From: an uncultured Verrucomicrobiae bacterium
GTDB taxonomy: Bacteria; Verrucomicrobiota; Verrucomicrobiia; Limisphaerales; Palsa-1400
NCBI GenBank assembly: GCA_963707025.1
Contig: CAVPOM010000005.1
Location: forward strand, 576,001-640,000
DNA: 64,000 bases
Reading direction: 5' to 3'
Shown in pieces: positions 41,648 to 63,230 of the stretch. The notes beneath the pieces were generated by a model. That model saw only the letters and a program-made list of their open reading frames with translations, had not been told where the DNA came from and ran no database searches. The position numbers were made by a program, and so were the translations under genes. How positions within the stretch are numbered: position 1 is the stretch's first letter; each line of letters opens with the position of its first letter.

Positions 41648-42539
41648 GTGAAGACAGGAAGACTGCAGGTTGCGCTGATTACCCTGCTGGGCTGCGGAGT
41701 CTGTGCCGGGAAGGATTCCTGCCTTGATTGTCACCGCATCATGGAAGGTATGATCCCAACCAAATTCTGGCGAACCTCTACATCGCCATCACCTACTATC
41801 AGTACCCCAATTTCATGTTTTCGTTCGGCGGCGGCGGAACGGAGGATTATTCGATTGTGCCCTGCACCCTCGCCTACATGTTTCTGCAAAGTTACCAAAC
41901 CAACCTTCACCTTTTCCCCAATTGGCCAGCGAACCAGAATGCTTTTTTCGGCAATTTGAACGCCTGCAACGGGTTTTTGGTCTCCAGCGCCATGACCAAT
42001 GGCTTGATCTCCTGCGTGCAAATCACCAGCACAGCCGGTCATTTATTGAATCTGGCCAAACGCTGGCCGCAGACACCTTGAGCCTGAAAGCGCGCTTGGC
42101 GAGCGACGCCTCCGGCGGCAATATCGAACTGCGTCTGGGCACGACCAACGGCCCGCTGATTGGCGTCCTCACGGTGACAAACACCGGCGGGTGGCAAACC
42201 TGGACGACGGTGAGCACGGCGTTGACGAATGCCAGTGGTGTCCAGAACCTGGTGCTGCGGTTTGTGGGCGGGAGTGGGTATTTGTTGAACGTGGAATGGC
42301 TGGGGTTCACCCCGATCTCGTCGGCGCCGGTGCAACTGGGCTGGCAACGCAGCGGCTGGCAATTGCAGTTCAATTGGCCCGCGGACCACACCGGATGGCG
42401 GTTGGAAGCCCAGGCCAATGCGCTTGGCGCCGGCCTGGGCACGAATTGGCTGACGGTTCCAAGCTCAACCTCAACAAACACTGTTTCCATTCCCATCACC
42501 ACCAATGACAGCGCCTTTTTCCGGCTCGTTTACCCTTGA
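41648..42539 (+). pseudogene. Chimeric remnant: cytochrome c N-terminus + GH95-like C-terminus + CBM6 and FFRL-type C-terminal domain
   Basis: Signal plus CLDCH (to ~41748); LQSYQTNLHLFPNWP..NLNA.NGFLVSS (to ~42075); GGNIELRL..NTGGWQTW; WPADHTGWRL..SAFFRLVYP. Confidence 0.65.
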
Positions 42540-42759: not shown

Positions 42760-45700
42760 ATGCGCTGCGTCGTTGTTGCACCGGTCAATCGCGGATTTTG
42801 TGTCCTTGCCGCGTTACTGACGTGTGGATTGTGCGCCGCAGTGGCAGCAGCGGAGAAGCCCGCCAGCCCGGCGCAAGCGGAATTGCTCACCAACTTATTC
42901 CAGCTCCGGCGTTGTGCCCATCAAGAGCAAGCAGTTGTCCATCCCTTCCGAATCGCGGCGGATGTCTGCGACGTCGATTCTGCAGGCGGTGTGTTAGTCC
43001 TCCGCGATCTTTCCGGCGTGGAGTTCATTCGGTTGGATCTCCAAGGCCGCGCCATTGAAGCGGGAGCAACTGTGTGTCTGGAAGGAAAAGGATGCGGTTT
43101 GAAGCCGAAGAGCTTCGGACTGGCCGTTGTTCCCGGAATGGTTGTGGATAACGACGGTCTCCATAGAATGACAGTTGAATCCGGCGCGGCCTTTCTCCGT
43201 GCCGGCGTCAACCCGATTACGGTTCAGTGGTTCAACCACACCGGAGACTTTGGCTTGAGCGTGGAATATGAAGGACCGGGCTTGCCACAGCAACGAATAC
43301 AAGGCGCCGTTCTGTCAAGAGCGAACACTAATCCCGCGACAAGCACCGCCAATTTTTCCGCCGGACTCGATTATCGGTGTTACCAAGGCGCCTGGGGTAA
43401 CCTGCCGGATTTCGGGATGCTCCATCCGGTAAAGACCGGAGTTGCTACCAACTTCGATCTCGATGTTCGAACACGGAACGAAGCTGTGGGGCTGGAATTC
43501 AACGGCTTTATCACCATTCCACGCGATGGCTTATACACATTCCATCTCGCGTCTGACGACGGAAGCCGACTATTTGTCGGCGAGTCGTCCTTGGACGTTC
43601 GCGTCTTGAGCCAAGGCTCTCCGCCGACTGCGATTGAGGAATTACCTGCAACCGATGTCCAGAGGAAAAGCCGTCCCTGGGTTACCCTTGAAGGGACGGT
43701 TGACTTCGTCGGCGTCCGGGGCGCCGGTGGGGAACTTCAGATTCGAGTCGGAAACGATGAAATCCGGGTGGATATTTTCGAGAGCGGCGATTTCGTTCCC
43801 AACTTCCCGTCGGGCACCAAAGTTCGGGTTACCGGAGTTTATCAGGATATCGTCACAGAGGATGGCTCATGGGTCCCGGGGTTATTGCTGGTTTCGAGTT
43901 GGAAAGATGTCCGTCCTGCCCTCGCTTCCTCTGAACGGCGTTCAGCAAAGGCGATCGGTGATCGAGCGACATTGAACCCATCGGCATTTGATACGGATTC
44001 GGCGCCAAATGGGATCCCGGCAATCCGGACCATAGCGGAAATCAAGATGCTTCCCTCCGACCTGGCCAAGCAGCAGCTTCCCGTATCGATCCGCGGAGTT
44101 GTAACTGCTTTTCTCTTCCAGGGTGCAGTCGTCCAGGATTCCACAAGGGGCATTTATGTTTATCTGCAGGATTTGGATAAGTCCGAACCGCTGAAGTGTG
44201 GGGAATTCTACCAGATCGACGGAGTTACGGGCCCGGGTATGTTCGCGCCGGTGATTGTTGCCCGCAGGATAAGTCACCTCGGGTCCGGTCAATGGCCGCA
44301 GCCGCTGCACGCGACGTGGGCTCAGCTTGTGAACGGAAGCCTGGATACCCAATACGTAGAAATTGATGGCGTTGTCACTGCCGTCAAGGATCAGAGCGTG
44401 TTGCTGTTCACCGAGGGCGGGAAGATTACGCTGGATCTGAGTGACTTTCGGACTGGAGTCCTCGGCGGCTACGTGAACGCACTTATTCGGATTCGCGGCT
44501 GTATTCTTGCTGCATTCAATGAGCAAACGCGCGAGCTTGAACCGCGATTGCTTCGTATCGTGGATGGCGCCGTGGATGTCATTCAGCCAGCGCCCCATGA
44601 TCTTTTTGACGTGCCGCAAAAGAGCATCGGTGCGCTTCTGCTCTACGATCCGAAAGCGGCGTCGTTCAGGCTCCTGAAAGTGAGCGGCCAAATTATCTAT
44701 GGTCGGGCAGGAGAGTATTTCCTGACCGACGGCACAAATGGCATGCATGTGACAACCAGCAATTCTGATCATTTTGCAATCGGCGAACTGGTGGACGCGG
44801 TCGGTTTTCTCGATCTCGGAGGTCCTGCTGCCGGACTCAAGGAGGCGGTGCTGCGTAAGACCGGCCTCGCTCCCTTGCCCGCGCCAACAAAGCTCAATCC
44901 GAATCACCTGCTGGCGGCCAACTGCGCCGACACGCTGGTCCAGCTGGACGCTACGCTGATGAATGAATGGGTGGATGGCTCCGAACACGTCCTGGAGCTC
45001 CAGTCAGGGTTTCTTGCGTTCAGGGCGCGGATCAACAGCCGTGGGCAATCCACCGCGTTGCCACCGCCCGGGAGCCGACTGGAATTGACCGGCGTCTATG
45101 TGCCTAAAGGTAATCGTCCAAGCGACGGTGATGTAACCGGCTTTGAGTTGCTGCTTTACTCGCCGTCGGGCGTTCGCGTTCTGGCAACTCCTCCTTGGTG
45201 GACTTTGAAGCGCGTGCTCATCCTTGCAGTAATCCTTGCCGCGCTGCTCTGCGCTGTTGTGGTTTGGAACAAAGAACTGAAGCGGAAGGTTCAAGAACGC
45301 GGCCGCCAATTGGAAACCGAAATTCGCAGTCGCCAAGGGGCCGAATTGCGGCACGCCGCCGAAGAGGAACGCTCGCGAATTGCGCGCGACCTGCATGACG
45401 AACTTGGAACGGGTCTCACTGAAGTAAGCTTGCTGGCCAGCGCCGGACTGGGTGAATTCCGGGACATGGAGAAGAATGACGACCGCTTCCACGTCATTGC
45501 AGAGAAAGCCCGCGCTCTTGTGTCGGGGCTTGACGTTATTGTTTGGGCGATTGATCCAAAACGTAATTCACTGCAATCCTTTGCCGACTACCTGGGGAGC
45601 TATGCCGAGGAGCTTCTATCCGCATCGAATATCGTTTGCCGGCTTAGGATTCCAATCGAGTGCGACCCGGTCAATCTGACCGGAACCGCGCGGCACAGCC

Positions 45701-45975
45701 TGTTCCTTGCCATCAAAGAAGCTTTGAACAATGTCATCCGCCACGCGTCCGCAACGCAAGTGGAGCTGCAGATGACGCAATTCGAAAATCGCCTCGAAAT
45801 CGTCATCGCCGACAATGGCCGCGGCTTCGATTGGAACGCCATTCGGCCTGGTAATGGTCTGACGAATATTCGTGAGCGCTTGGAAGCGTTGTGCGGCCAG
45901 TGCCAGATCGAATCACAACCCGGAAAAGGGACCACAGTCAAATGCGCTGTGCCCTTGCCCCACGATCCAAGGTAG
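42760..45975 (+). CDS. Sensor histidine kinase (HisKA_3 + HATPase) with large extracytoplasmic region including permuted PA14
   Basis: N-terminal hydrophobic segment; SDDGSRL; PWWT + TM; ERSRIARDLHDELG; EALNNVIRHA; DNGRGF..GNGL. Confidence 0.92.
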   Translation: MRCVVVAPVNRGFCVLAALLTCGLCAAVAAAEKPASPAQAELLTNLFQLRRCAHQEQAVVHPFRIAADVCDVDSAGGVLVLRDLSGVEFIRLDLQGRAIEAGATVCLEGKGCGLKPKSFGLAVVPGMVVDNDGLHRMTVESGAAFLRAGVNPITVQWFNHTGDFGLSVEYEGPGLPQQRIQGAVLSRANTNPATSTANFSAGLDYRCYQGAWGNLPDFGMLHPVKTGVATNFDLDVRTRNEAVGLEFNGFITIPRDGLYTFHLASDDGSRLFVGESSLDVRVLSQGSPPTAIEELPATDVQRKSRPWVTLEGTVDFVGVRGAGGELQIRVGNDEIRVDIFESGDFVPNFPSGTKVRVTGVYQDIVTEDGSWVPGLLLVSSWKDVRPALASSERRSAKAIGDRATLNPSAFDTDSAPNGIPAIRTIAEIKMLPSDLAKQQLPVSIRGVVTAFLFQGAVVQDSTRGIYVYLQDLDKSEPLKCGEFYQIDGVTGPGMFAPVIVARRISHLGSGQWPQPLHATWAQLVNGSLDTQYVEIDGVVTAVKDQSVLLFTEGGKITLDLSDFRTGVLGGYVNALIRIRGCILAAFNEQTRELEPRLLRIVDGAVDVIQPAPHDLFDVPQKSIGALLLYDPKAASFRLLKVSGQIIYGRAGEYFLTDGTNGMHVTTSNSDHFAIGELVDAVGFLDLGGPAAGLKEAVLRKTGLAPLPAPTKLNPNHLLAANCADTLVQLDATLMNEWVDGSEHVLELQSGFLAFRARINSRGQSTALPPPGSRLELTGVYVPKGNRPSDGDVTGFELLLYSPSGVRVLATPPWWTLKRVLILAVILAALLCAVVVWNKELKRKVQERGRQLETEIRSRQGAELRHAAEEERSRIARDLHDELGTGLTEVSLLASAGLGEFRDMEKNDDRFHVIAEKARALVSGLDVIVWAIDPKRNSLQSFADYLGSYAEELLSASNIVCRLRIPIECDPVNLTGTARHSLFLAIKEALNNVIRHASATQVELQMTQFENRLEIVIADNGRGFDWNAIRPGNGLTNIRERLEALCGQCQIESQPGKGTTVKCAVPLPHDPR

Positions 45976-46006
45976 GTTGCGAATCTGAGAAATCTCACGA
46001 CATCAC

Positions 46007-46630
46007 ATGACCACAGTTGCCATTATCGAAGACAACGATACGATGCGCAAAATGCTCGTAGAGCTGATTAACAGCGAGGCGGATTACCGTTGCGTCTGCG
46101 CGTGCTCGACTTCCAAAGAGGCTCTCATTGAGGTGCCGAAACACCAGCCCAATGTTGCGTTGATGGACATTCACCTGCCGGACGAGTCCGGAATAGCCTG
46201 CACGGCGGAATTAACCGAGAAGATGCCCGAGCTTCAGGTCATCATGGTGACCGTTTACAAAGAGACCGACCTCATCTTTCAAGCGCTCAAAGCCGGCGCC
46301 TGCGGGTATATCCTCAAACGTTTCCGCCCGGGGGAAATCATCCAAGCCATCGCCGAAGTGCGGGCAGGCGGCGCGCCCATGACGAGCGAGATCGCGCGCA
46401 TGATCGTGCGGTCTTTTCGCGCGCCGTCGGCTGCACCCGACCCAAACGGTTTGACGGCCCGCGAAGCGGAGATCCTCATGCTGCTCGCGGAAGGACTCTC
46501 GAACAAAGAGATTGCGCAAAGAGCGAATATCAGTGCCGGGACCGTTCGCATCCATTTAGGAAACATGTTCAAGAAGCTTCACGTTCGCAGCCGAACCGAA
46601 GCAGCCGTCAAATACTCGCGCAAGAATTAG
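46007..46630 (+). CDS. NarL/LuxR-family response regulator
   Basis: IIED, LMDIHLP, GACGYILK; LTAREAEIL..GLSNKEIA HTH. Confidence 0.95.
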   Translation: MTTVAIIEDNDTMRKMLVELINSEADYRCVCACSTSKEALIEVPKHQPNVALMDIHLPDESGIACTAELTEKMPELQVIMVTVYKETDLIFQALKAGACGYILKRFRPGEIIQAIAEVRAGGAPMTSEIARMIVRSFRAPSAAPDPNGLTAREAEILMLLAEGLSNKEIAQRANISAGTVRIHLGNMFKKLHVRSRTEAAVKYSRKN

Positions 46631-46692
46631 CACGGAGCCGCCGGCGCTCCAAACAAGACCATCGGCGCTGCCAACGGGGTAACCGGGTCGAA

Positions 46693-46722
46693 TATGACAT
46701 GTGTCATACGCCATATGTCGGA
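46693..46722. promoter_or_regulatory. Tandem 7-2-7-type palindromes upstream of the LamG/Ig gene
   Basis: TATGACA-TG-TGTCATA (46693-46708) overlapping TACGCC-ATAT-GTCGGA (46707-46722). Confidence 0.6.
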
Positions 46723-46859
46723 TTTCATTTGCTCCCGATTCCCGCTAGTCTCTGCCTGAAATCCAACTTGTTAGGTAAGGCTTCGTGAGTACCTATGGCC
46801 GTGCTTGCGCGACGAAACTGATGCCCTTGAGTTGGAAAAAAGTACTGAACATTAAGCTT

Positions 46860-49800
46860 ATGAATCCAAACAACCCAAGACTTGCTCCATCCTCCCGAAA
46901 CTCACAGGCACGGTTCCGTTTGCTTCCCTTCACGGCCAGCCGAGTCGGCAAGCTTGCCGCCTGCCTCATACTGGGCGTCGCGGCGCTCTCGCAATCGGCC
47001 CGCTCTCAGCCGCCCAGTTACGCGGCATCGGCCTTGTCCAATAAGCCGGTTGCTTTTTGGCAGTTGAATGAAGCCAACGGAGCTACGCAGGCTAAGGATT
47101 CCAGCCCCAACGGACTCAATGGGACCTATGGAGTGGATGCTGTACTGGGCGTCTTTTTTGCGCCCTATACTCCTTACCTTGGATTTGCAATCAACCAAAC
47201 TGCGCTGCTATGTACGGCCGGCGATTTAACTTCGGTGGCCACAATTCCGCCTTTGAATTTGAACACCAACGCCGTGACCATCGCCATGTGGATCAATCCC
47301 ACTGCCGAGGTAAGCACCGGCTTTACGGGATTGCTCATGACCCGAACCTCCGGAGGCGACGCGGCTGGCTTTGGGTTTGGGGGAAGCTCGAACAGCCTCG
47401 GCATGGTCGAACTGGGTTACACTTGGAACACGAACAACGCCGCGACGTACAACTTCAATTCGGGGCTTTATCCGCTGGTCGCCCAATGGCAGTTTGTGGC
47501 CTTGGTGGTCCAATCAAATTCGGCGACCATCTATCTGTATTACGTTGATTACTCCGGGAATACGCAATTGCAGTCGGCCGTCAATCCCATTGCGCACGGC
47601 CCCGAAGCGTTCAGTTTCAGCGACGGAGTGAACGGATTGATTTTGCTGGGCTCCGATGTGAACGGGACTACCGTCGCTGCGGCCAACAACGTGTTCCCCG
47701 GTGAAATTTCCGATGCGGCCGTGTATAAATCGGCCCTCTCTTCCGACCAGATTCTGGCCTTGTTCGCCGCGGGCGTCGGCGTGGAGGGATTTGCGCCAGA
47801 GATAACCGGGCAGCCCCAATCCGAATACGTCGTGTCGGGCGCACCGGCACACCTGACGGCCACTGGCATCAACGGCACCACCAACATTTCGTTTCAGTGG
47901 CAGTTGAACGGCACCAATGTCAATGCCCTGGCGGACAGCGCCAATTTCACCGGCGCCACAAGTTCGAACGTATTGACTATTCTCAGTGCAACGCTGGCCG
48001 ATGCGGGTACTTATCAGTTGATTCTCACGAACACTTATGGCACGAACTACAGCAGCAATGCGGTTCTTGTCATTCAGGCTCCGGCCTTGGTGGGTGAATG
48101 GCTTACCAATGGCATTTTGGCCGATGTTTCGGGCTATTCGCCGGCCGGCACCCACGACGGTTACGACATCGTTGGCAATGGCGCCTTTTTGTTCACCAAT
48201 GATGTGCCGGTCGGCAAGGCCGGTCAATCGATTTGGTTCACCAATCTTACCGGCATCGCCATCAGTAACTCGTCCACATTGGACGGGACGACCTACACCA
48301 ACACTTTCGATAACGTCATCAACAACGCTTTCACCGTCTCATGCTGGGGGAAGGGTTTGCCGGGAAGTTGGAATCCGTTTGTGTCCAAGTGGGGTGAAGG
48401 CAGGCCCTACAGTTCGCCCGACGGCGGCTTTCAGCTCCGCACGGACGGTAATGGCAATGATTCGTGCTTCACCGTTCGCTGCGAACAAAGGGGCACGCTC
48501 CTCTTTGGGAACGCGGCCGACGCTATTGATGACATGGCCACCACAACCGTTCCCACCGCGGATGGCAAATGGCACTTCTATGCCGGCACTTACGACGCCG
48601 GGACGGGCATCCGCAGCCTGTGGGTGGACGCGATCCTGGCCGCCCAGGAGAGCAACAACGTGCTTTATGACCTGGCCCCGTATTCACACCTTTGCATCGG
48701 CGCCAAAGACAGCTCTCCGGGCAACACCTTTGGCCAGTACACCAGCAACCTGCTGGTTTACGACGTGCGCATCTATAACTACGCGCTCGCCCAATCCAAT
48801 GTTCTGAAATTGTATGGCGCAGTTCCGGCAGTGATCAACGGGCAGCCGCCTTCCGCTTACCCCTTCGCGGGCCAATCGGCAACGATAGGAGCCGTTGTCG
48901 GCGGCACCCAACCCATTACGTATCAGTGGACGTTGAACGGCACCCCTGTCAACCTCCTGCCTGACGCCGCCAATTTCACCGGCGCCACAAATTCGAACGT
49001 ATTGACGATTGCCAGTGCGTCGGCGGCCGACCAGGGTGTGTATGTGTTGGCTATCACGAACGCCTTCGGATGGGCAATCAGCAGCAATGCGGTCCTGACA
49101 CTTTCCGTTCCGAGCCTGGTGGGTGAATGGTTTAACGGACCAGCCATCCTGAACGATGTTTCGGGCTATTCGCCCACGAACACACACGACGGTTTCGCCA
49201 CCGGCGCTCAGAGCTATGCGTTCACAACTGATGTGCCGGCCTACAGATCCGGAAACTCGCTTAGTTTCGGAGCCTCCAGTGCATCGGGCATCTCCATCAG
49301 TAACTCATCCACAGGTTACCCGGGCTACACCAACACGTTCGATAACCAGGTGTACACCTATCTCACCGTCTCGATGTGGGTGAAAGGCACTTTCGCCGCG
49401 TATTCCTCCGCCGGCTGGCCGGCCTTCGCAGTCAAGAATGGTGAAAGTGGCGGATGGCAGCTGCGCGGTGACCAATGGGCCGCGCCCGGTTGGACCGTTC
49501 GAGACAATAACGCGGGCACGATGTTCAATGGCCAAAACGGGGGGTGGGACGGTAACGACGATATGTCCGCGAATGCTGGTTTTGATGGCAAATGGCATCT
49601 CTATACCGGCACATACAACTCCCTATCGGGCTATCGCGCCCTGTATATTGATGGCCAACCTACTGTTTACGAGACCGGCAACAAGCCATATATCACGGCC
49701 ACGGCTTCACACGTCACTATCAACGGCGAAGACTCTGGCAATGGCAATTATAATTTCACCACGCCCGCGTTTGAATACTACGACCTGCGCATCTATAACT

Positions 49801-51050
49801 ACGAACTCAGTGCTGCCCAGGCTTCGGATCTCTACAACATTCTGCCCCCTGGCACTCCGGCACAAATAGGCATCCAGCCGCCAGCCAGCATCAGCACCAC
49901 TTGTCAGGGTGTAACTGTTCAGATCCGTGCCGCTAGTGGTGGCAGCCCACCGGTTACCAATCAGTGGCAGTTCAACGGCACCAACTTGGTGGACGGCAAC
50001 TATGGCGGCGTCATTATTAGCGGCTCAAGTTCGAACGTCCTGACGATCGCCGATGTGACGACGAACTACCAGGGTGTATATGACTTGGTTGCCACGAACG
50101 CGTTTGGCGGGCAAGTCAGCAGCAATGCGACTCTCACCATTGGTGTTTTGCCCACTGCGCCCGCACCGCCGGGGACACTCGTGGGTGCATGGCTTACCGG
50201 AGCAGCGACTCTGGCCGACACTTCGCGCTATTCGCCGGCGGGGACACACGACGCTTGGCAAACGGCCGGCAGCACCTCTTGGACCAATGACCTGCCGCCC
50301 ATGGCCACGCCGGGCGGTTCCTCGCTGTATTTCACCAACGCCGGTCTGGCGATTAGCAATTCCTCCACGCTGGATCCCGGCTACACCAGCACGTTCGATG
50401 CCGCCATCACCAACAGTATGACCGTCATGTGCTGGGCGAAGGGTTGGCCGGGCACATGGAATCCGTGGGTGTCCAAGTATGGTGAAAACGGTGCGGGCTG
50501 GCAGCTCCGCGTCAATGCTTCGGACACTGCGTGTTGGACCATTCGCGGCACGGGTGGCAATGAGGATATGGGAGCGCCCAATAGCAGCGATGACGGCGGT
50601 TGGCACAGCTATGTCGGCACTTACGACGTGCCGTCGGGTATCCGCAGCCTCTATATAGACGGAGTGCTGGCCGTTACGCAGACCGGCCAGGGACCATATA
50701 ACGAGTCCACTCCCTCGCAGCTTATGATTGGCGCCAAAGACAGCGGTGGCAACAAGTTTGGCAACTACTACACCGGCGAAATCTACGGCGTGTACATTTA
50801 CGACACCGCACTCAGCGCAGCCCAAGTTAACGGCGTCTTAATAACGCCGCCGCCGCCACTGCCGTCGTTTAATGGCCTGCCAGGCATCACAACAGGCCCC
50901 AGTGGCCCTGAATTCGTGCTGACGTGGGTAGGCGGCAGGTTGCTCGGAGCGACGAACGTGACTGGCCCGTGGACGCCAACCGGGGCAACATCGCCTTACA
51001 CGAACTTCATGACAAATACGCACATGTTCTTCCAATTGGTTAATCCGTAA
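46860..51050 (+). CDS. Large secreted protein, 4 LamG-like jelly-roll domains alternating with 3 Ig-like domains, FFQL-type C-terminus
   Basis: Signal peptide; repeats of QWQxNGTN..SNVLTI..D.G.Y.L..TN and LVGEW..DVSGYSP.GTHD..DGKWH.Y.GTY..RIYNY.L. Confidence 0.88.
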   Translation: MNPNNPRLAPSSRNSQARFRLLPFTASRVGKLAACLILGVAALSQSARSQPPSYAASALSNKPVAFWQLNEANGATQAKDSSPNGLNGTYGVDAVLGVFFAPYTPYLGFAINQTALLCTAGDLTSVATIPPLNLNTNAVTIAMWINPTAEVSTGFTGLLMTRTSGGDAAGFGFGGSSNSLGMVELGYTWNTNNAATYNFNSGLYPLVAQWQFVALVVQSNSATIYLYYVDYSGNTQLQSAVNPIAHGPEAFSFSDGVNGLILLGSDVNGTTVAAANNVFPGEISDAAVYKSALSSDQILALFAAGVGVEGFAPEITGQPQSEYVVSGAPAHLTATGINGTTNISFQWQLNGTNVNALADSANFTGATSSNVLTILSATLADAGTYQLILTNTYGTNYSSNAVLVIQAPALVGEWLTNGILADVSGYSPAGTHDGYDIVGNGAFLFTNDVPVGKAGQSIWFTNLTGIAISNSSTLDGTTYTNTFDNVINNAFTVSCWGKGLPGSWNPFVSKWGEGRPYSSPDGGFQLRTDGNGNDSCFTVRCEQRGTLLFGNAADAIDDMATTTVPTADGKWHFYAGTYDAGTGIRSLWVDAILAAQESNNVLYDLAPYSHLCIGAKDSSPGNTFGQYTSNLLVYDVRIYNYALAQSNVLKLYGAVPAVINGQPPSAYPFAGQSATIGAVVGGTQPITYQWTLNGTPVNLLPDAANFTGATNSNVLTIASASAADQGVYVLAITNAFGWAISSNAVLTLSVPSLVGEWFNGPAILNDVSGYSPTNTHDGFATGAQSYAFTTDVPAYRSGNSLSFGASSASGISISNSSTGYPGYTNTFDNQVYTYLTVSMWVKGTFAAYSSAGWPAFAVKNGESGGWQLRGDQWAAPGWTVRDNNAGTMFNGQNGGWDGNDDMSANAGFDGKWHLYTGTYNSLSGYRALYIDGQPTVYETGNKPYITATASHVTINGEDSGNGNYNFTTPAFEYYDLRIYNYELSAAQASDLYNILPPGTPAQIGIQPPASISTTCQGVTVQIRAASGGSPPVTNQWQFNGTNLVDGNYGGVIISGSSSNVLTIADVTTNYQGVYDLVATNAFGGQVSSNATLTIGVLPTAPAPPGTLVGAWLTGAATLADTSRYSPAGTHDAWQTAGSTSWTNDLPPMATPGGSSLYFTNAGLAISNSSTLDPGYTSTFDAAITNSMTVMCWAKGWPGTWNPWVSKYGENGAGWQLRVNASDTACWTIRGTGGNEDMGAPNSSDDGGWHSYVGTYDVPSGIRSLYIDGVLAVTQTGQGPYNESTPSQLMIGAKDSGGNKFGNYYTGEIYGVYIYDTALSAAQVNGVLITPPPPLPSFNGLPGITTGPSGPEFVLTWVGGRLLGATNVTGPWTPTGATSPYTNFMTNTHMFFQLVNP

Positions 51051-51081
51051 GGCAGACGCTTGTAATTGAGATCTAAATCAC

Positions 51082-51117
51082 AGAGGCAGAGGTTTTCACC
51101 TCTGCCTCTTCTTTTTT
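51082..51117 (+). terminator. Intrinsic terminator
   Basis: 12-bp stem AGAGGCAGAGGT/ACCTCTGCCTCT, TTTC loop, then TCTTTTTT. Confidence 0.88.
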
Positions 51118-51359
51118 GTCACCCTTCGGTGGTCATGGCGGTTTTTGGAATGACTTCTTGAATTGAAAACGGCCTGGTTTCCAGCCTGCAAGAAACCGCG
51201 ATGCGCCCCGTCTTCTGCGCGGGACAAAATAATCCTCGACCGAATCCCGCCTCGCCATTATCATACCCGCATCAATGTGGACCGTTTTCCGAGAGTGTTT
51301 CCGGTTCTGCGCGCGTGAGAAGAAATGGTGGTTGCACTTGACAGCATGTTTTGAACGTT

Positions 51360-53816
51360 ATGAGCTGCCGGAAACCAAAGCGTAACTCCCCCAAGGGTCC
51401 CGCCGTGCCATTATCCAGGAGAAAACTTTGGCGTTTCCGGCTGATGGCACTAATCGGAGTGCCGCTGCTCTTCTTCGGCCTGCTGGAATTGGGTCTCCGC
51501 CTGGCCGGTTTTGGATACCCAACCGCATTCCTGCTGAAATCCTCCAACCACGGTGAAAACACCTTTGTGCAGAACAACCAGTTTGGCTGGCGTTTTTTTG
51601 GCCCACGCGCGACCCGCGTGCCGGAGGCAATTTCCATCCCGCGCGAGAAACCGCCCGGCACCGTTCGGATTTTTGTCTTTGGCGAATCCGCCGCCTATGG
51701 CGATCCGCAACCTCGCTTCGGCCTGCCCCGCATGTTGGAAGCCATGCTTGACTTGCGGCATCCCGACAAAAAGTTTGAAGTGCTCAACGCCGCCATGACC
51801 GGCATCAATTCGCACGTCATCCTGCCCCTGGCCCGCGACTGCGCGGAGGCCCGCGGGGACGTTTGGGTGATTTACATGGGAAACAATGAAGTCATCGGGC
51901 CGTTCGGCGCCGGGACGGTCTTTGGCAGCCAAACGATGCCGCTGCCATTGATCCGCGCCGGGCTCGCGCTCAAAGCGACACGGACCGGCCAGTTGCTCGG
52001 CGCATTGCAGGGAGCGTCGGAGAAAACCGCCGCCGGGAAAGACGAATGGAAGGGCATGAGGATGTTCGTCAAATACAAACTGGCGGGTTCCGACCCGCGC
52101 CTCGGCGCGGTCTATGATAATTTCGGGCACAATCTGAAAGACATCATCGCCGCTGGCCAAAACAGCGGCGCGAAAATCGTATTAAGCACGGTGGCGGTAA
52201 ACCTGAAGGACTGCGCCCCATTCGCGTCGCTGCACCGCCACGATCTTTCGGAATCCCGGCTCAATGACTGGCAACGCTTCTTTGATGCCGGCGTGAAAGC
52301 CCAGGTGGGCGGGAATTTTCGGCAGGCGGCCACGGACTATGATCAGGCGGAACAAACCGACGAAAGCTTTGCGGAGTTGCGTTTCCGCCGCGGCCAATGC
52401 GATCTGGCGATGAATGATGCCGGGTCGGCCCAAAAGGAATTTGCCGCCGCGCGCGATCTGGATGCCTTGCGTTTTCGATGTGACAGCCGGCTCAATGTCA
52501 TCATCCGGCAGCAGGCGGTGGGCGATGCGGTGCTGGCCGACGGTGAACGGACGCTGGCGGAGGCGAGTCCAGACGGCATTCCCGGCGCCGAATTATTTTA
52601 TGAACACGTCCATCTCACATTTCAGGGCAACTATGTTCTTGCCCGCGCCATCGCGGAAAAAGTGGAAAGAACATTGAGGCTTCCGGAAAGCGCGCCTTGG
52701 CCGGACATGGCCGAATGCGCGCGACGCCTCGGCCACACGCCGCGCGACACGCAAGCGGCCCTGTCAGTCCTGTTCGGGCGCCTTGGGGACGTTCCCTTCA
52801 CGTTTCAAGCCAACCACGACGAGCAGATGCGCCGTCTGACCGAAGCCGCGCGCGAATTGCCGCCGCCCGATTCGGCCGCGTCGCTTCGCGGGGCGCAATC
52901 CGCCGCCGAGGCCGCGCTGGCGCGGTGGCCCGACGATGCCGCGCTGTGGAAACAACTGAGTGAAATCAAGCAGGCGGAGGGGGATTACGCCGGGGGGGTT
53001 GCCGCGGCTCAACGTTCGCTCGACCAGACGCCCAGCAGCGCCGAGTGCTGGCTGCTTTACGGCACTCTGCTGGCGCACGAAGACAAATACGAGGATGCAG
53101 CCGCGGCCTTTAAGCGGGTGTTTGCGCTCGATCCGCGAGCCGTTTGGGGCAGGCTCAACCTCGCTTCGTGCCTGGAGAAACTTGGCCGCCGCGACGAGGC
53201 TCTGGTCGAGTTCAAACGCACGCTTGCCCTGAAACCGGATTATGGCACGGCCTGGCTGTTGCTGGGTCAACTCTATGAAGAAATGGGGCGCACCAACGAC
53301 GCGGGACAATGCTTCAACACGGCGTTGACCAATCGCGTCAACCAGACGGACGACCTGGCCGCGCTGGCGCGCTTTTGCTTCAGCCGCCGCTGGTTTGGAC
53401 TGGCCGTCACCAATTTTGCCGCCGCCATTGAGCTTAGCCCGTCGGATCCCGGCTTGCACATGGAAGCCGGACGGGCGCTGTCGGCGCTCGGCCAGCATGA
53501 CGAGGCAGCGCGGCAATATCAGTCGGCCGTTGAGCTGGAGCCCGGTCAGCCTCAACCGCACATACAACTGGGTTTTGAACTTGGTCGTCTTGGGAAGCCC
53601 GCTCTGGCCGAGCCGGAGTTTCGCCAAGCCCTGCGACTTGATCCCAATTTAATTGAGGCGCGTGTGGACTTGGGCATCGCCTTATACGAACAGGAAAAGC
53701 TTGATGATGCCCTCAAACAATTTGAGGACGTTCTTCAGCGCAACCCCAAGGATGCAACCGCCCTGCGCTATGCCCAGCTATTGCGGAGTCGGACACCTTT
53801 GCCCGCAGCCCGATAG
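51360..53816 (+). CDS. Membrane-anchored SGNH-like + TPR repeat protein
   Basis: N-terminal TM; FVFGESAAYG, NAAMTGINSH, YMGNNE, FYEHVH; many TPR helices in the C-terminal half. Confidence 0.8.
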   Translation: MSCRKPKRNSPKGPAVPLSRRKLWRFRLMALIGVPLLFFGLLELGLRLAGFGYPTAFLLKSSNHGENTFVQNNQFGWRFFGPRATRVPEAISIPREKPPGTVRIFVFGESAAYGDPQPRFGLPRMLEAMLDLRHPDKKFEVLNAAMTGINSHVILPLARDCAEARGDVWVIYMGNNEVIGPFGAGTVFGSQTMPLPLIRAGLALKATRTGQLLGALQGASEKTAAGKDEWKGMRMFVKYKLAGSDPRLGAVYDNFGHNLKDIIAAGQNSGAKIVLSTVAVNLKDCAPFASLHRHDLSESRLNDWQRFFDAGVKAQVGGNFRQAATDYDQAEQTDESFAELRFRRGQCDLAMNDAGSAQKEFAAARDLDALRFRCDSRLNVIIRQQAVGDAVLADGERTLAEASPDGIPGAELFYEHVHLTFQGNYVLARAIAEKVERTLRLPESAPWPDMAECARRLGHTPRDTQAALSVLFGRLGDVPFTFQANHDEQMRRLTEAARELPPPDSAASLRGAQSAAEAALARWPDDAALWKQLSEIKQAEGDYAGGVAAAQRSLDQTPSSAECWLLYGTLLAHEDKYEDAAAAFKRVFALDPRAVWGRLNLASCLEKLGRRDEALVEFKRTLALKPDYGTAWLLLGQLYEEMGRTNDAGQCFNTALTNRVNQTDDLAALARFCFSRRWFGLAVTNFAAAIELSPSDPGLHMEAGRALSALGQHDEAARQYQSAVELEPGQPQPHIQLGFELGRLGKPALAEPEFRQALRLDPNLIEARVDLGIALYEQEKLDDALKQFEDVLQRNPKDATALRYAQLLRSRTPLPAAR

Positions 53817-53853
53817 ATGGCGAACGCGCGCCCTTTAACGCAGCGGAAAGACG

Positions 53854-53881
53854 TTGACGGAGTGATATTAACAGGTACAAT
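53854..53881 (+). promoter_or_regulatory. Sigma70-like promoter for the second kinase
   Basis: TTGACG-16 bp-TACAAT just upstream of the ORF. Confidence 0.5.
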
Positions 53882-53889
53882 GCACAGCG

Positions 53890-56800
53890 ATGCACTTCCC
53901 AATGAAGAGGCGGCTTTCTGCCACTGTGGTCTTCTCCATCCGGGTGGCCTTGGTCTTGGGCGCGATGGCGTCCGGTGCTCCTCTTGACGCCCAAACGGAC
54001 CCTGTCATCACCAATCTTGCACAGCTCACACCGGCTCTCGGTCGTGAAAATCCTATAGTGCGGGACATCAAGCTGGATGCAACAGTCTTCGCCTGCAACA
54101 CGAACTCCGGCGCGTTGGTCGTGCAGGATGAAAGCGGCGCCGAACTTCTCGAAATGGACGGCCTCGGGCAAGTGCTTCAGCCCGGGGACAAAATCCGAAT
54201 CCAGTTCTCGCGGTGTTTCTTCCGTCGCAGCGATCTCGGGATTTTCGTCTCCGCCGCCCCAACGGTTGACAACGACGGAACTCATAGCGCAAGAACATGT
54301 AGCGGTGAATATCGGCTGAAGGCGGGCCGATTTCCTCTTCGAGTAGACTGGTTCAATCAGTACGGCGCGGCTGCTTTGGAGGTTTTCTGTTCGGCAACCA
54401 ATTCTGCGCCGCAGGGGGCCGCAACGGGTGCCGAGGTGACGGCAGCTATGATCCACGTGCTTCGCGCGGAATGTTATGAAGGGAACTGGCTCAGGCTGCC
54501 AAATTTTCAACTGCTGCGACCGGCAAAAGTCGGGAATGTCACTAATTTCGACATTGCGTTCCGGACTCGCGACGAGTTGGCTGGAATCCGGTTCTACGGT
54601 TACGTTGATATTCCACAAAGCGGTAGGTATCGTTTCGCTCTGCGCTCGGACGACGGCAGCCAATTATGGGTTGGAGATGCTGCGGTGCCTTTAGAGAAAC
54701 TCGGCACGAACTCCCCGCCGCTCGCCCCAACGGCCGCAAACGGCGAACCGATGAACAACCTGGATGAACGACGACTGGCGACGGTGGAAGGACGTGTCGG
54801 TTTTGTTTCGCGTATTGGAAAAGGATTGCGCTTTGAAATGCTCTCGGACCTGAATCGCGTGTCCGTGGCGATGGCCGATGCAGGGTCTCTGGAACAAGAA
54901 AGCCTTTTAAATGCTTACGTGCGGGTATCGGGTGTTGCGTCGGGGGTTTTAATTGGAGATCACCGAGTGGTGCTCGGCAGTCTTACTGCGGCAAGCTCGA
55001 AGGAACTGACGATCATCGAAAATGCTCCCGGAAAGGGAAAGCTGCCTCCGCTGCTGACAACCATGCTGCAAGTTCAAAGTCTCACGACGAACGATGCCGC
55101 GCGCGAACTGCCGGTAAAAATTCGCGGGGTTGTCACCGCGGTCGCATTTGGACTGGGACGTTGGATTGCAATTCAGGACGATACGCACGGAGGTTTTGTT
55201 CGGATCAACGTGATATCGAATGACGTCCCGAAGGTCGGCGAATTCTGGGAAATCATGGGCCACACGCAGCTGGGGGACTTTGCCCCGATCATTGTGGCAA
55301 CAAAGGGCACGTTGCTCGGCGAAGGCCAGCTTCCCGAACCGGCGCACCCGACGTGGGATCAATTGCTCAATGGCAGCATGGATGTTCAATGGACCGAACT
55401 GCAAGGCGTGGTCACTGGAGTACACAGTAATTGGATTTCGCTTCTCCTCCCAGAAGGACGGCAAGAAATTAGAATGGAGGGGTGGGGTGAATCTGAGTTA
55501 AAGGAGTTCTATAATTCAGTCGTCCGCATCCACGGCGCTCTGTTTGCGACCTGGAATGCCCAGACTCACGAAGTTCGGGTCGGCAGCATCGAGTTTCGCA
55601 ATGCCTCGGTGGCGGTGGACAAACCGGCCAGCGCCAATCCGTTCGATGTGCCGGAAAAAACCCCGCGCGGCCTGTTTCTCTTCGACGCCAAAGCCACGTT
55701 GTTTCAGCAAGTGAAGGTTCGCGGCCAAGTTACCTACGCCGATTCAGAGTGCGTCTTCATCGAACGCGGCGCGGGAATACAAGTTTTTCCGGCCAGCAGT
55801 GTGACGCTCAGCCTGGGCGACATCGTGGAAGCGGTTGGGTATCCGAAACTGTCCGGCGCATCCCCGGTCCTGCGGGAAGCGCTGATGCGCAAGATACAAG
55901 ACGGTGTGCTTCCGAGTCCTCGCCTGGTCTCTGATTCGGAATTGGCACAGGAACGACTGGCTGCAACGCGAATTCGCATCGAAGGAAACCTCCTCGCGCA
56001 ACACCGTGAAGACAGCTGGTTGGTTCTGCAAATGCAAACTCATACGCACCTTTTTCTCGCCCGCATCACCTCCGTTGATTCCCTGAGTTCGTTGCGGCCG
56101 GGAAGCGAGCTGTCGCTGACCGGAATTTACACTTTGCCTGGAAACGACGCGTCGCATTTCGAATTGCTCCTCAATGCGCCGGGCGACATCGTGGTCCTGT
56201 CCGAGCCGTCCTGGTGGACGCTCCGGCGTCTGCTTTGCGCGGCCGGTGCAATGATGGTGACATTGGCAGTCGCCGCTGTTTGGATTACAGCGCTGCGACG
56301 CCAGGTCGCCCAACGAACCCACCAACTTCAGCGCGAAATCCGCGAGCGCGAACGCGCCGAACGCCAGCAGGCGATCGAAGCGGAACGCTCCCGCATTGCC
56401 CGCGACCTTCATGACGATCTTGGTTCCAGCCTGACCGAAATCAATGTACTCGCCAGCACCGGCCAGCGGCCCCCTCAAGGAAACAGCGCGCATGCTGCGT
56501 TGTTCAAAGCGATTGCGGACAAAGCGCGAAGCCTTATCGTGGCACTCGATGGCATCGTATGGGCGGTTGACCCCGAGGACAATTCATTGCAGTCGCTCGC
56601 TGATTATCTTAGCGGTTACACTCGCGAATATTTATCCAAGTGGGATATTGCGTGCCGGTTTAAGATTCCCATCACACTCCCGGACGTTAAACTCGATGGC
56701 GAAACCCGGCACGAGTTGCTCATGGTCGTAAAAGAGATTTTGAACAATATTGTCCGCCACGCCGAAGCCAGCGGAGTCGAATTCCAGATGAATCTCGTGG

Positions 56801-57024
56801 ATGACATTCTGGAAATAGCGATTGCCGACAACGGGAGAGGTTTTGACACGGCCACCGAGGCTGACGGACACGGATTGAAAAACCTTCCTGCCCGGCTGAA
56901 GAAAGTGGGCGGCAGTTGCCGTATCGAATCCCTCTCCGCCATAGGCACGACCGTCTGCATGCATCTTCCTCTGCCTACGGCCCTCGCCAGTCGAGACGAA
57001 GAAGCAAATACGACGTTTGTTTGA
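53890..57024 (+). CDS. Second sensor histidine kinase, paralog of 42760-45975
   Basis: Same architecture: VDNDGTH..SDDGSQL, PSWWT + TM, ERSRIARDLHDDLG, DNGRGF..GHGL. Confidence 0.92.
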   Translation: MHFPMKRRLSATVVFSIRVALVLGAMASGAPLDAQTDPVITNLAQLTPALGRENPIVRDIKLDATVFACNTNSGALVVQDESGAELLEMDGLGQVLQPGDKIRIQFSRCFFRRSDLGIFVSAAPTVDNDGTHSARTCSGEYRLKAGRFPLRVDWFNQYGAAALEVFCSATNSAPQGAATGAEVTAAMIHVLRAECYEGNWLRLPNFQLLRPAKVGNVTNFDIAFRTRDELAGIRFYGYVDIPQSGRYRFALRSDDGSQLWVGDAAVPLEKLGTNSPPLAPTAANGEPMNNLDERRLATVEGRVGFVSRIGKGLRFEMLSDLNRVSVAMADAGSLEQESLLNAYVRVSGVASGVLIGDHRVVLGSLTAASSKELTIIENAPGKGKLPPLLTTMLQVQSLTTNDAARELPVKIRGVVTAVAFGLGRWIAIQDDTHGGFVRINVISNDVPKVGEFWEIMGHTQLGDFAPIIVATKGTLLGEGQLPEPAHPTWDQLLNGSMDVQWTELQGVVTGVHSNWISLLLPEGRQEIRMEGWGESELKEFYNSVVRIHGALFATWNAQTHEVRVGSIEFRNASVAVDKPASANPFDVPEKTPRGLFLFDAKATLFQQVKVRGQVTYADSECVFIERGAGIQVFPASSVTLSLGDIVEAVGYPKLSGASPVLREALMRKIQDGVLPSPRLVSDSELAQERLAATRIRIEGNLLAQHREDSWLVLQMQTHTHLFLARITSVDSLSSLRPGSELSLTGIYTLPGNDASHFELLLNAPGDIVVLSEPSWWTLRRLLCAAGAMMVTLAVAAVWITALRRQVAQRTHQLQREIRERERAERQQAIEAERSRIARDLHDDLGSSLTEINVLASTGQRPPQGNSAHAALFKAIADKARSLIVALDGIVWAVDPEDNSLQSLADYLSGYTREYLSKWDIACRFKIPITLPDVKLDGETRHELLMVVKEILNNIVRHAEASGVEFQMNLVDDILEIAIADNGRGFDTATEADGHGLKNLPARLKKVGGSCRIESLSAIGTTVCMHLPLPTALASRDEEANTTFV

Positions 57025-57025
57025 T
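57008..57025. promoter_or_regulatory. Operator-like motif upstream of the second regulator
   Basis: ATACGACGTTTGTTTGAT, 16/18 identical to 57920-57937. Confidence 0.55.
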
Positions 57026-57146
57026 TTGTTGAAACGACCGATGTCCTGTACAATGACAAACAATCGCCTAAAATGTCCTTCAAACTCGTTTGCACAAAAC
57101 TATGTTGACACCGTCCTTACCGAGTCGGAATCCCAATTCAAGTTTG

Positions 57147-57809
57147 ATGACCAAAATCGCCATTGTCGAAGATAACACGACCTTTCGCCAGTATCTCGCG
57201 GATTTGATAAGTGCGGCTCCGGATCTCACCTGCGTCTGCGCCTGCGGGTCCGCGGAAGAGGCGCTGGTCGAAATCCCCTCGAAGCGTCCGGACGTGGTGC
57301 TGATGGACATTCATCTTCCTGGCGAATCGGGCATCGCCTGCACCGCGCGACTGCGCGTAAAAATGCCCGACCTGCAAATCATCATGCTGACCGTTTACAA
57401 GGACATCAAGACGATCTTCGAGGCTCTGAAGGTGGGCGCTTGCGGTTACGTGTTAAAGCGGGCAGACGAAATGGAAATTCTCCTCGCCATTGCCGAGGTG
57501 CGGGCAGGCGGTGCGCCGATGACGAGTGAAATCGCGCGCATGGTTGTGCGATCCTTCATGGAACCGCCAACCACTCCGCTGTCGGAGACCGTACAACTCT
57601 CGGCGCGCGAAACGGAAATTCTGGCCGTATTGGCCGAAGGTCTGTCGAACAAGGAAATCGGCGCGCGATTGCATATCACCTCCGCCACCGTCCGCACCCA
57701 CTTGATGCACATTTACGAAAAGTTGCACGTCCGCTGCCGCACAGAAGCCGCGGGGAAATACCTTCGACAACTCCATCCGGCGGTTCCGGGTCTCCAGGGA
57801 CGCAGGTGA
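57147..57809 (+). CDS. Second NarL/LuxR-family response regulator
   Basis: MTKIAIVED, LMDIHLPGESG, LSARETEIL..GLSNKEI; close paralog of 46007-46630. Confidence 0.93.
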   Translation: MTKIAIVEDNTTFRQYLADLISAAPDLTCVCACGSAEEALVEIPSKRPDVVLMDIHLPGESGIACTARLRVKMPDLQIIMLTVYKDIKTIFEALKVGACGYVLKRADEMEILLAIAEVRAGGAPMTSEIARMVVRSFMEPPTTPLSETVQLSARETEILAVLAEGLSNKEIGARLHITSATVRTHLMHIYEKLHVRCRTEAAGKYLRQLHPAVPGLQGRR

Positions 57810-57919
57810 GAAGCAAATCACGCATAAAACGACGTTCTGAACGTAATCAGGCCCTGCCAGCATGATCCCGCACGACGGCGGCACAAACCCGCAGACCCAT
57901 TCCGAGGTCCGCGGCCGGC

Positions 57920-57937
57920 ATACGACGTTTGGCTGAT
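57920..57937. promoter_or_regulatory. Operator-like motif upstream of the prepilin gene
   Basis: ATACGACGTTTGGCTGAT, about 105 bp before the ATG. Confidence 0.55.
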
Positions 57938-58041
57938 ACCAACCGGCCTGCATTTCTGCTACGGTGACCATCAAATCAGCCCGAAATGTCAGCAGACCTG
58001 ACGATATCGGCCTTGACGAACGCACAACATAGTCCAATTGA

Positions 58042-58941
58042 ATGAAACCTCGACACAGTTCTTGTGGACTGCCCTGGCACCCGGAATCCCGGCCTCGGGC
58101 AGTGTGCGGCTTTACTTTGATCGAACTGCTCGTGGTCATCGCCATCATCGCCATTCTGGCGGCCTTGTTGCTCCCGGTTCTGGCCAACGCCAAAAAGAAA
58201 GCCCAGGAAACTTACTGCCGGAACAATGAAAAGCAGTTTGTCCTGGGTTTGACAATGTATGCGGACGACTACCGCAATGTGGTGTTGCCATTTTTTCTGG
58301 ATGCAAACGGTGACGATGCCGGCGGCTATTATGGATGGCCCACCCTGTCTCAAGGGAATGATTTTCCAGGTGTGAGTCAGGCGGCGGCCCTGGAAAACGC
58401 CAAAGAGGCACTGACGAACAGCATCCTCTACCCCTACGTCAAGAACGTGAATAGTTTCCATTGCCCGGGCGATACGCGCATCTCCCGGCCCACCGGCGGG
58501 GGCGGATTTGCCTTCTGCACTTATTCCAAGACGCAGAACTACGGCGGCGAATCCTACGATAGTTATTGGGGTCAGGGCGCCACCATTAACAAAGCGTCCG
58601 ACATTACGGCTCCCTCCATGACCTTTGCAGAGGTGGAGGATACTGACTGGCGCGGATTTGACGAGGGAACCTTCGTCTTGAATGGCGTGGTGGGCACCAC
58701 CCCCTGGGTGTTCACCCCGGAGGATCCGCTGGGCATGTATCATGTCAATGTGAATGTTTGGGGCTTCGTGGACGGCCATGTGGAGAGTCATAAATGGACC
58801 TACCAATCGGCCATCACGGCCGGCCTGGAAGCCTCCACGGGACAAAACACGGCGGGCCAGTGGATGCTCCCCAATGGAGGCGCCTCGGCCAAGGATTACC
58901 AGTACATTCAAAACCGCTGGCGATTTCCAGGGTGGCATTGA
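58042..58941 (+). CDS. Prepilin-type N-terminal cleavage/methylation protein with H-X9-DG motif (PVC DUF1559-like)
   Basis: [46 protein letters not shown]. Confidence 0.92.
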
Positions 58942-59029
58942 CGGACGGACTTGTGAGCTTTTCAACCGTGCTTTGACTGATGCGGAAGTGCATGACATTT
59001 ATACGGAAGGGAAACGGCTGGAGCCCTAA
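58942..59029 (+). pseudogene. C-terminal remnant of a LamG-domain gene
   Basis: ELFNRALTDAEVHDIYTEGK resembles the end of a LamG-like domain. Confidence 0.5.
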
Positions 59030-59067
59030 CCACCGGCTGAATTTCTCCAAATGACCAAGAACACTCT

Positions 59068-60471: not shown

Positions 60472-60518
60472 TTGCCCAGGCTGTCAACCACGCCCCATTA
60501 TTAATTCTCAACTAATGA

Positions 60519-63230
<2,712 letters not shown>

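Follow-up and report, generated by a model that had tools for sequence, protein, structure and literature searches.

This analysis concerns a block of seven genes in a stretch of 64,000 nucleotides (the window; positions 576,001 to 640,000 of contig CAVPOM010000005.1, assembly GCA_963707025.1) from an uncultured Verrucomicrobiae bacterium of the Limisphaerales. The block encodes two sensor kinases (HK1 and HK2), two response regulators (RR1 and RR2), a secreted-type LamG/Ig protein, an SGNH-TPR protein and a prepilin, and lies among genes for carbohydrate-active enzymes (CAZymes). We consider it likely that these are two intact two-component systems of different clades which act through glycan sensing, binding of a regulator box and joint induction of target genes. 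Sequence and comparison show the gene anatomy, the permutation of a PA14 domain whose Asp-Asp pair is invariant, the box together with the genes behind it, and clade-specific boxes and enzyme sets. The genes of the block, with the Pfam domains of their open reading frames (ORFs), are:

42760-45975, + strand: HK1 sensor kinase (PA14 (partial), HisKA_3 and HATPase_c), with a predicted layout of signal/transmembrane segment, an array of about six OB barrels into which a circularly permuted PA14 (approximately 43135-43584) is inserted, transmembrane segment, HisKA_3 and HATPase_c
46007-46630, + strand: RR1, NarL/LuxR-type regulator with recognition helix TVRIHL (REC and GerE)
46860-51050, + strand: LamG/Ig secreted-type protein (four Laminin_G_3 and three Ig stretches)
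51351/51444-53816, + strand: SGNH-TPR protein, with an N-terminal anchor, an SGNH-like domain (Ser, Asn and Glu-x-x-His blocks with a TPR insert) and C-terminal TPRs (Pfam TPRs; homologue blocks)
53890-57024, + strand: HK2 sensor kinase, architecture as HK1 but of another clade (PA14 (partial), HisKA_3 and HATPase_c)
57147-57809, + strand: RR2, NarL/LuxR-type regulator with recognition helix TVRTHL (REC and GerE)
58042-58941, + strand: H-X9-DG/DUF1559 prepilin with an intact G|F site and E5 (N_methyl and DUF1559)

All seven ORFs are intact and co-oriented. The gene order given by a first-pass annotation of the letters alone is borne out by ORF calls and Pfam, as are its CAZyme surroundings on both sides: GH39, two GH29, GH95, GH3, GH31, three GH43, GH27 and GH51 genes to the left, and two esterases and a GH10 gene to the right (genes below 150-200 amino acids were left out of Pfam labelling). 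Such a set is of the kind that serves decorated arabinoxylan and the side chains of xyloglucan; among the window genes, Pfam showed no xyloglucanase family. Named homologues of the block proteins belong, for example, to Verrucomicrobiota and Limisphaerales. Both kinases are of the HisKA_3/HATPase_c type and each adjoins a regulator with a REC domain and a LuxR-type helix-turn-helix, as in HisKA_3/NarL systems; the H-box DLHD of the kinase and the receiver Asp of the regulator are visible in the sequence. HK1 and HK2 share 37% identity across 1053 columns.

The kinases had been described as twin PA14 sensors. PA14 itself stands, with PF07691 above its cut-off but partial (approximately 35 residues in each kinase) and with the Asp-Asp pair in place; the domain is permuted, however, and takes up no more than about 150 of the roughly 790 residues outside the cytoplasm, most of the remainder being a predicted OB array. 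An AlphaFold model of HK1 residues 31-797, built with 111 sequences, is nearly all beta (mean predicted local distance difference test score, pLDDT, 87.5), and a Foldseek search with it placed multi-OB proteins on top. Compared with solved OB domains (VIA), repeat 3 gave a Z of 11.9 (root-mean-square deviation 2.0, 80 aligned residues) and repeat 5 a Z of 10.5 (2.2, 78 aligned). Six barrels are read from the strand pattern, the first being the least tested, and the whole-model search was dominated by repeat 3; repeat-to-repeat hhalign matches were weak (best probability 53). The predicted outer domain is a row of some six OB-fold barrels into which one circularly permuted PA14 is inserted. By comparison with 9s8a the halves of PA14 are reversed (query 107-183 to 526-605, query 52-96 to 634-679), and against two canonical PA14 domains the first half maps to the end and the second to the middle. 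The Asp-Asp pair is invariant in 111 sequences and a DNDG.H motif nearly so. PA14 domains are known for Ca2+-dependent sugar binding. The kinase PA14 matched PDB 6qdi, which we take to be the pectin-binding PA14 tandem of a clostridial RsgI anti-sigma factor; both are extracytoplasmic PA14 domains with an acidic pair on a transmembrane signalling protein, although here a single permuted copy is nested in a barrel array and the output is a histidine kinase rather than an anti-sigma factor.

Near-full-length relatives of the kinases occur in 17 of the 31 genomes of the family (own included), and the full form or a shorter one without the first two barrels and PA14 in 22 of 31. In a phylum-wide sample of 160 other genomes, one gave a match. 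A genome of another class has two of the kinases, which adjoin GH30/MFS and GH53/GH13 genes, with no pilin in the stretches read. The ESM Atlas holds one Verrucomicrobiota PA14 cluster, which is nameless. We found no description of an OB-array/permuted-PA14 sensor in the literature searched, which excluded most subscription journals; the sensor family and its operator code are what is new here. A third full-type kinase (GH53 clade) lies at C10:118364-124994 of the host genome with a pilin, an Ig protein and a GH53 gene, its kinase and regulator ORFs being in pieces.

Comparison of upstream regions brought out an 18-bp palindrome, ATAYGAC-N4-GTCRTAT (arms 7-4-7), that is common to LamG/Ig, pilin, GH2 and GH3 genes and links genes of the window. 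Its sites in the window, and the one target gene outside the block, are:

16935-19286, - strand: GH95 alpha-L-fucosidase/galactosidase-family gene, predicted regulon member (Pfam GH95; box-preceded orthologue in locus L104)
19430-19447, unstranded: perfect palindromic box of ATACGAC type (RR2-like), located 144 bp ahead of GH95, between it and a divergent GH51-like gene
46692-46723, unstranded: two tandem boxes upstream of LamG/Ig, of ATATGAC type (46692) and ATACG type (46706)
57008-57025, unstranded: degenerate box over the last HK2 codons, upstream of RR2 (predicted autoregulation)
57920-57937, unstranded: degenerate box upstream of the prepilin, its first 12 bases the same as in the RR2 and GH95 boxes

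The GH95 box has no mismatch, and three matrices derived from other genomes placed it at rank 1 to 3 among 3331 intergenic regions. The tandem pair before LamG/Ig stems from a 14-bp insertion relative to loci L032 and L033, and a box before the regulator gene recurs in L052, L053, L055 and L059. Searching the host genome (6.96 Mb, 88% complete) with the pattern ATAYGACRWWYGTCRTAT at up to two mismatches returned three sites, all in the window (two at LamG, one at GH95); the reversed control returned none. With a matrix from the HK2-clade loci together with L091 and L098, the GH95, LamG, pilin and RR2 sites ranked 1, 2, 6 and 13 of the 3331 intergenic regions. The first matrix, built from eight sites of other genomes, gave 19 intergenic matches in 11 of 33 kinase-region loci (the eight seeds included), all but one in an HK1/HK2-clade context; it gave one match, before a pilin orthologue, in nine further loci and none in 16 background windows (320 kb). 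SGNH-TPR has no box upstream and is probably outside the induced set. Outside the window, a strong matrix match at C6:2241 that fails the two-mismatch pattern precedes a 405-amino-acid secreted-type gene near a prepilin.

A forward test took all 12 listed, previously unused sites with zero or one mismatch in related genomes, plus one two-mismatch site chosen for its kinase contig. Eleven of the 12 precede a CAZyme, a CBM/LamG/fn3 protein or a prepilin: two prepilins, four LamG/Ig genes, two CBM6/fn3-type genes, one GH95 orthologue and two esterase runs (one behind a short unlabelled ORF); the twelfth precedes an FG-GAP/ASPIC protein, and the additional site a GH3 gene. Orthologues of the window's own GH95, LamG and esterase-GH10 run are among these targets, with the GH95 orthologue of L104 79% identical to that of the window and the esterase runs of L098 and L105 carrying boxes of their own. 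Among the matches listed, sites with zero or one mismatch were confined to seven of the 31 genomes, all of which have HK1/HK2-clade genes.

Among regulators of the HK1/HK2 clades, the recognition-helix residue that follows TVR covaries with position 4 of the box arm, which is T in 30 of 32 arms for regulators with Ile or Asn and in none of eight for regulators with Thr. This residue aligns with the Val of NarL TVKVH, presumably a DNA contact. RR1 has Ile and RR2 has Thr; the LamG promoter has one box of each kind. The regulators resemble the NarL/FixJ family (NarL, DevR, VraR) in their REC-LuxR architecture, in alignment (E 1e-32 to 1e-25) and in having an inverted-repeat site, but their 7-4-7 box matches no known site that could be tested and in that family they are set apart by the covariation of a helix residue with one box position.

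For comparison between genomes, genes were called at all 28 near-full-length kinase places outside the host genome and at L031, giving 29 loci (L063, a duplicate of L032, and the extensions L060-L062 were dropped from the counts; genes of L039 and L042 were labelled by likeness instead of Pfam). In a quick version of the kinase tree, clades track enzyme class: one goes with GH53 (9 of 12 rows) and another with the alpha-mannan set GH76/GH92/GH125/GH38 (3 of 4), while the HK1 and HK2 clades go with GH29, GH95-like, GH31, GH3, GH2, GH27, GH97 and GH127. The other clades have boxes of their own before their pilin, LamG/Ig and enzyme genes, CCWCAC-N4-GTGWGG-like in the GH53 clade (weak in the first de novo search and recovered at the second) and ATCATCC-N4-GGATGAT in the mannan clade; de novo search found none for the starch clade. 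In L055 and L060 a Reg_prop/Y_Y_Y/HisKA_3 kinase, a sensor of the hybrid two-component system (HTCS) type, heads the same arrangement of regulator, LamG and pilin or SGNH-TPR. Prepilin genes occur in 18 of the 29 loci by comparison with three of 16 fixed-coordinate background windows, and SGNH-TPR genes were found no more than 10 kb away from an OB-array kinase in 11 of 72 cases, where about 1.1 were expected.

Several points weigh against the glycan-sensing regulon. The gene-neighbourhood analysis proposed by the first-pass annotation linked the kinases to prepilins and SGNH-TPR, but at the level of loci not to CAZymes: any CAZyme was present in 19 of 29 loci versus 8 of 16 background windows (p 0.35, not significant), with none seen in ten loci, and the gene counts (36/179 at kinase loci versus 11/176 in the background) were tallied by hand across related genomes, with window sizes and E-value cut-offs that were unequal. 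Because the alignment in which the box first came to light contained the window, the matrices are not fully independent; with a matrix from the HK1 clade, the pilin and RR2 sites come only at ranks 63 and 56 of 3331 (GH95 at 3, LamG at 1); the loose consensus is at chance in the window (6 versus 5.9); and most CAZyme gaps there have no box. The 12-mer common to the GH95, RR2 and pilin boxes occurs three times in the genome, always in the window, with 0.36 expected genome-wide, in a post hoc count. As for the helix code, the Thr class comprises just two loci, L036 (chosen for resembling the window) and L059; L035 lacks a site; and Thr is found in regulators of the mannan clade as well, whose box is a different one. 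Finally, OB folds are typical nucleic-acid binders as well.

This last point bears on a different explanation, that the kinases sense nucleic acid, envelope state or surface contact and control a general surface or adhesion programme in CAZyme-rich DNA. The best structural neighbours of the outer domain are nucleic-acid-binding OB arrays, the four-barrel form without PA14 is common and also found on an Acidisarcina diguanylate cyclase (26%), the CAZyme background is itself high, and the one deviating held-out site, before the FG-GAP/ASPIC gene, would suit such a programme. We nevertheless regard this as improbable given that kinase clade tracks enzyme class, that boxes directly precede CAZymes and that the PA14 Asp-Asp pair is invariant.

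The first-pass annotation had treated the seven genes as one sensing and capture module, and this was not supported. The seven-gene order was found in none of the 29 loci. The run HK1-RR1-LamG/Ig-SGNH-TPR is retained in L033, L034 and L031, the last with an insertion sequence (IS) and a split SGNH-TPR; in L032 a GH3 gene follows RR1 and SGNH-TPR stands ahead of HK1. None of the four HK2-clade loci has the pilin directly after RR2, the following gene being GH27, GH95-like, a ROK protein or GH3, with a pilin nearby in two of the four; and none of the eight best pilin orthologue loci outside the host genome is beside such a kinase. On this comparative evidence, the block is a conserved HK1-RR1-LamG/Ig-SGNH-TPR unit joined to a separately derived HK2-RR2-pilin unit. 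The sensing half of the first-pass reading fared better, with clade-specific CAZyme sets, replacement by Reg_prop/Y_Y_Y kinases in the same slot, and a palindrome that links LamG/Ig, prepilins and CAZymes. Further features at the edges of and within the block are:

41749-42539, + strand: remnant of a GH95-like/LamG/CBM6 gene (nucleotide matches to L052/L055; CBM_6 match)
51082-51119, + strand: terminator-like hairpin (12 pairs; 51082-51109) and T run 3' of LamG/Ig, conserved in L033, L034 and L099
58958-59008, + strand: possible LamG C-terminal remnant (weak; 17 LamG-tail-like codons)
59068-64000, + strand: a pair of esterase genes, one carrying malectin, and GH10, co-oriented behind the prepilin (Pfam)

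The block is probably not a single operon because of the strong terminator-like hairpin at 51082-51109 after LamG. Counts of sigma-70 and terminator-like sites were at or near chance level. No terminator-like site was listed in the gap 58941-59068, and the esterase-GH10 run is possibly read from the same promoter as the prepilin. Gene remnants had been claimed at both edges. The left one is the 3' part of its parent gene, with the 5' part lost and an internal deletion of about 520 bp; the parent is whole in L052 and L055 (84-91% nucleotide identity), where it follows the RR2 orthologue. The right one is weakly supported: ordinary blast found none, blastp-short gave E 0.006, and the region ranked 2 among 2880 intergenic regions with an E of 0.74.

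The left-edge remnant, several split CAZyme ORFs, an IS4 element in the window and a gene order unique to this genome would all be in keeping with a chance pile-up of decaying, rearranged cassettes that have no joint function in the strain. Seven intact ORFs and boxes that have been kept, three of them sharing a 12-mer absent elsewhere in the genome, make this very improbable.

Several CAZyme genes of the window (12042-13647, 19944-22038, 22186-24932, 37004-39230 and 16406-16861; GH39, GH51-like, GH3, GH51 and CBM6) appear to be split over two frames or fragmentary, by decay or assembly indels. An IS4-family transposase gene (30564-31793) has a contig depth of 13-54 compared with about 3 in two sequencing runs, suggesting many copies. 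A 231-amino-acid secreted-type ORF at 40948-41643 has no Pfam or NCBIfam match.

The label of H-X9-DG pilin proved literal: the prepilin has a G|F cleavage site, E5, a DUF1559 match over the cut-off and the H-X9-DG motif itself. It is not among the six matches listed for TIGR04294, a 22-position model with which 150 of 238 candidates were scored. Its model (pLDDT 94.8) predicts a type IV pilin-like fold; the top 20 rows of the structural comparison (VIA) were all pilins or pseudopilins, with Z at most 4.9 and no lectin among them, and Foldseek gave no match at E 0.001. With its N-methylation motif, DUF1559 and H-X9-DG it is like the DUF1559 (PF07596)/H-X9-DG (TIGR04294) prepilins of the Planctomycetota-Verrucomicrobiota-Chlamydiota (PVC) bacteria, including a large paralogue set (70 prepilin-motif ORFs of all pilin kinds in this genome); what sets it apart is a predicted operator that would place it in a two-component regulon together with CAZymes. 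A second copy on contig C12 is 96.5% identical in nucleotides between the FTLIELL codons and the stop.

The two prepilin copies (window 58104-58939 and C12:315630-316466, the latter L100:10632-11453) share about 550 bp of exact identity mid-gene with diverged ends, by gene conversion or as an assembly artefact in one copy, and the C12 copy adjoins an IS4 transposase gene identical to that of the window. Contigs from the sequencing runs were short and bridged no junction of the block; those without differences match the window's version, and the C12 version did not turn up, an absence that carries no weight. Another trio of prepilin genes (C16:176761, C7:543374 and C3:119717) has 95% and 85% nucleotide identity, and an internally deleted relative of the window prepilin lies at C13:44302-44889. 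At L050, L051, L053, L058, L059 and C6:678113, Pfam-less secreted-type proteins of 540-820 amino acids, some of them interrelated, are encoded beside pilins and kinases.

Pfam detects no catalytic domain in the LamG/Ig protein, and the relatives returned by a PDB sequence search were all of the Ig kind; it would most likely act as a multivalent binder. Full-length orthologues (72% in L033, 52% in L099) vary in domain make-up. About 107 proteins of the genome end in a common tail (consensus ending FYRL), a possible sorting or anchoring domain; a home-made hidden Markov model of this tail did not score the LamG/Ig protein, and a tail-bearing protein lies within 500 bp of only five of 36 strictly defined pilins of the genome.

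For SGNH-TPR, Pfam gave no SGNH match on the whole protein and no SGNH chain was among the best 60 of 99 PDB rows, while four invariant blocks in seven homologues and weak Lipase_GDSL_2 matches in six of the seven (best 6e-6; the window's own 0.05) speak for the label. As in SGNH/GDSL hydrolases and O-acyl esterases or transferases, Ser, Asn and His blocks are kept in order; unlike them, it has Glu for Asp in block V, a variable Gly in block II, a TPR insert and tail, and an N-terminal anchor (one membrane segment). It probably serves the kinases as a constitutive accessory in the periplasm. At L099:11794-14007 two genes lie between LamG and SGNH-TPR, one carbamoyltransferase-like by eye, a possible pointer to acyl transfer as the function of SGNH-TPR.

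What the pilin does admits two readings that concern the last step only, each of them compatible with the regulon. It could, with LamG/Ig, capture polysaccharide that is then imported through a secretin, so that the block would be a functional unit replacing SusC/SusD. This would fit the genome, which has no SusD match in its 88%, five TonB receptors of which none is on this contig (C5), six secretin matches and many T2SSE-family ATPase matches; it would also fit the box common to pilin, LamG and CAZymes, and the CAZymes, mostly GH29/GH95/GH43, near four of the eight closest pilin orthologues. Nevertheless the other four have no CAZyme near, the seven-gene order does not recur, the model resembles only type IV pilins, and the block contains no channel gene (in a genome 88% complete); we hold this reading doubtful. 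Alternatively, the pilin may bind no sugar and act as a pseudopilin-type adaptor that exports or anchors the large secreted proteins with which it is co-regulated. In most pilin-bearing kinase loci (L038-L041, L043, L045, L046, L053, L054, L057 and L060) a pilin is co-oriented with and adjacent to a large secreted-type protein; its G|F and E5 are intact, the genome has type II secretion system (T2SS) and type IV pilus machinery, and a possible LamG tail lies directly behind the window pilin. A partner-specific adaptor fits poorly, however, because the two 96% identical copies have different neighbours and orthologues of the window pilin usually lack a large partner, and we keep this as a tentative possibility.

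Returning to the glycan-responsive regulon, its closest counterparts are in Bacteroidota, where HTCS proteins, which combine a Reg_prop/Y_Y_Y sensor, HisKA and an AraC output in one chain, control polysaccharide utilisation loci (PULs). The likeness lies in a membrane sensor with a large outer domain among CAZymes, in clade-specific target sets and in the Reg_prop/Y_Y_Y kinases that occupy the same cassette slot in L055 and L060. The differences are two separate proteins, HisKA_3 with a NarL/LuxR (GerE) output, an OB-array and permuted PA14 sensor with no Reg_prop or Y_Y_Y in HK1 or HK2, and targets that include prepilins and LamG/Ig proteins with no SusC/SusD. SusC/SusD PULs link a regulator, surface non-catalytic proteins and CAZymes, as seen here, but of their adjacent TonB-dependent transporter and SusD genes, the former was not found on contig C5 and the latter had no match in the 88% complete genome. 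The system would thus work like an HTCS-controlled PUL while belonging to neither the HTCS nor the SusC/SusD class. Sensing and co-regulation in the HTCS manner are well supported at the level of sequence because of the clade-specific CAZyme sets, the slot replacement and the shared palindrome.

In the mechanism that we propose, the outer domain would sense fragments of decorated plant hemicellulose, with the ligand at the PA14 Asp-Asp site, the OB barrels or both, and the kinase would phosphorylate its NarL-type partner. A regulator dimer would then bind the 7-4-7 palindrome and activate the gene behind the box, RR1 (helix Ile) preferring ATATGAC and RR2 (helix Thr) ATACGAC. RR2 would activate its own gene, the pilin (followed by the esterase-GH10 run) and GH95, and both regulators would act on the LamG promoter. 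Pilin and LamG/Ig would work at the cell surface in glycan use, LamG/Ig most likely binding multivalently and the pilin most likely serving as its display or capture partner on shared type IV/T2SS machinery; this surface step is the weakest of the mechanism.

The finding bears on the sensing and uptake of polysaccharides by PVC bacteria in the absence of SusC/SusD. A SusC/SusD-free mode of use in the soil and peat Verrucomicrobiota of this family, in which permuted-PA14/OB sensors each serve a glycan type, a one-residue NarL-helix code selects the operators, and H-X9-DG pilins with LamG/Ig proteins catch and import the glycan, is an uncertain, minority prospect as a whole. H-X9-DG prepilins are a very large family, and the exact operators unite them with LamG/Ig proteins and CAZymes in a single predicted regulon. 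These operators make the regulon idea cheap to test. They would also allow regulons to be recognised in the genomes of uncultured soil bacteria, and from them the glycans that unannotated pilins are likely to target.

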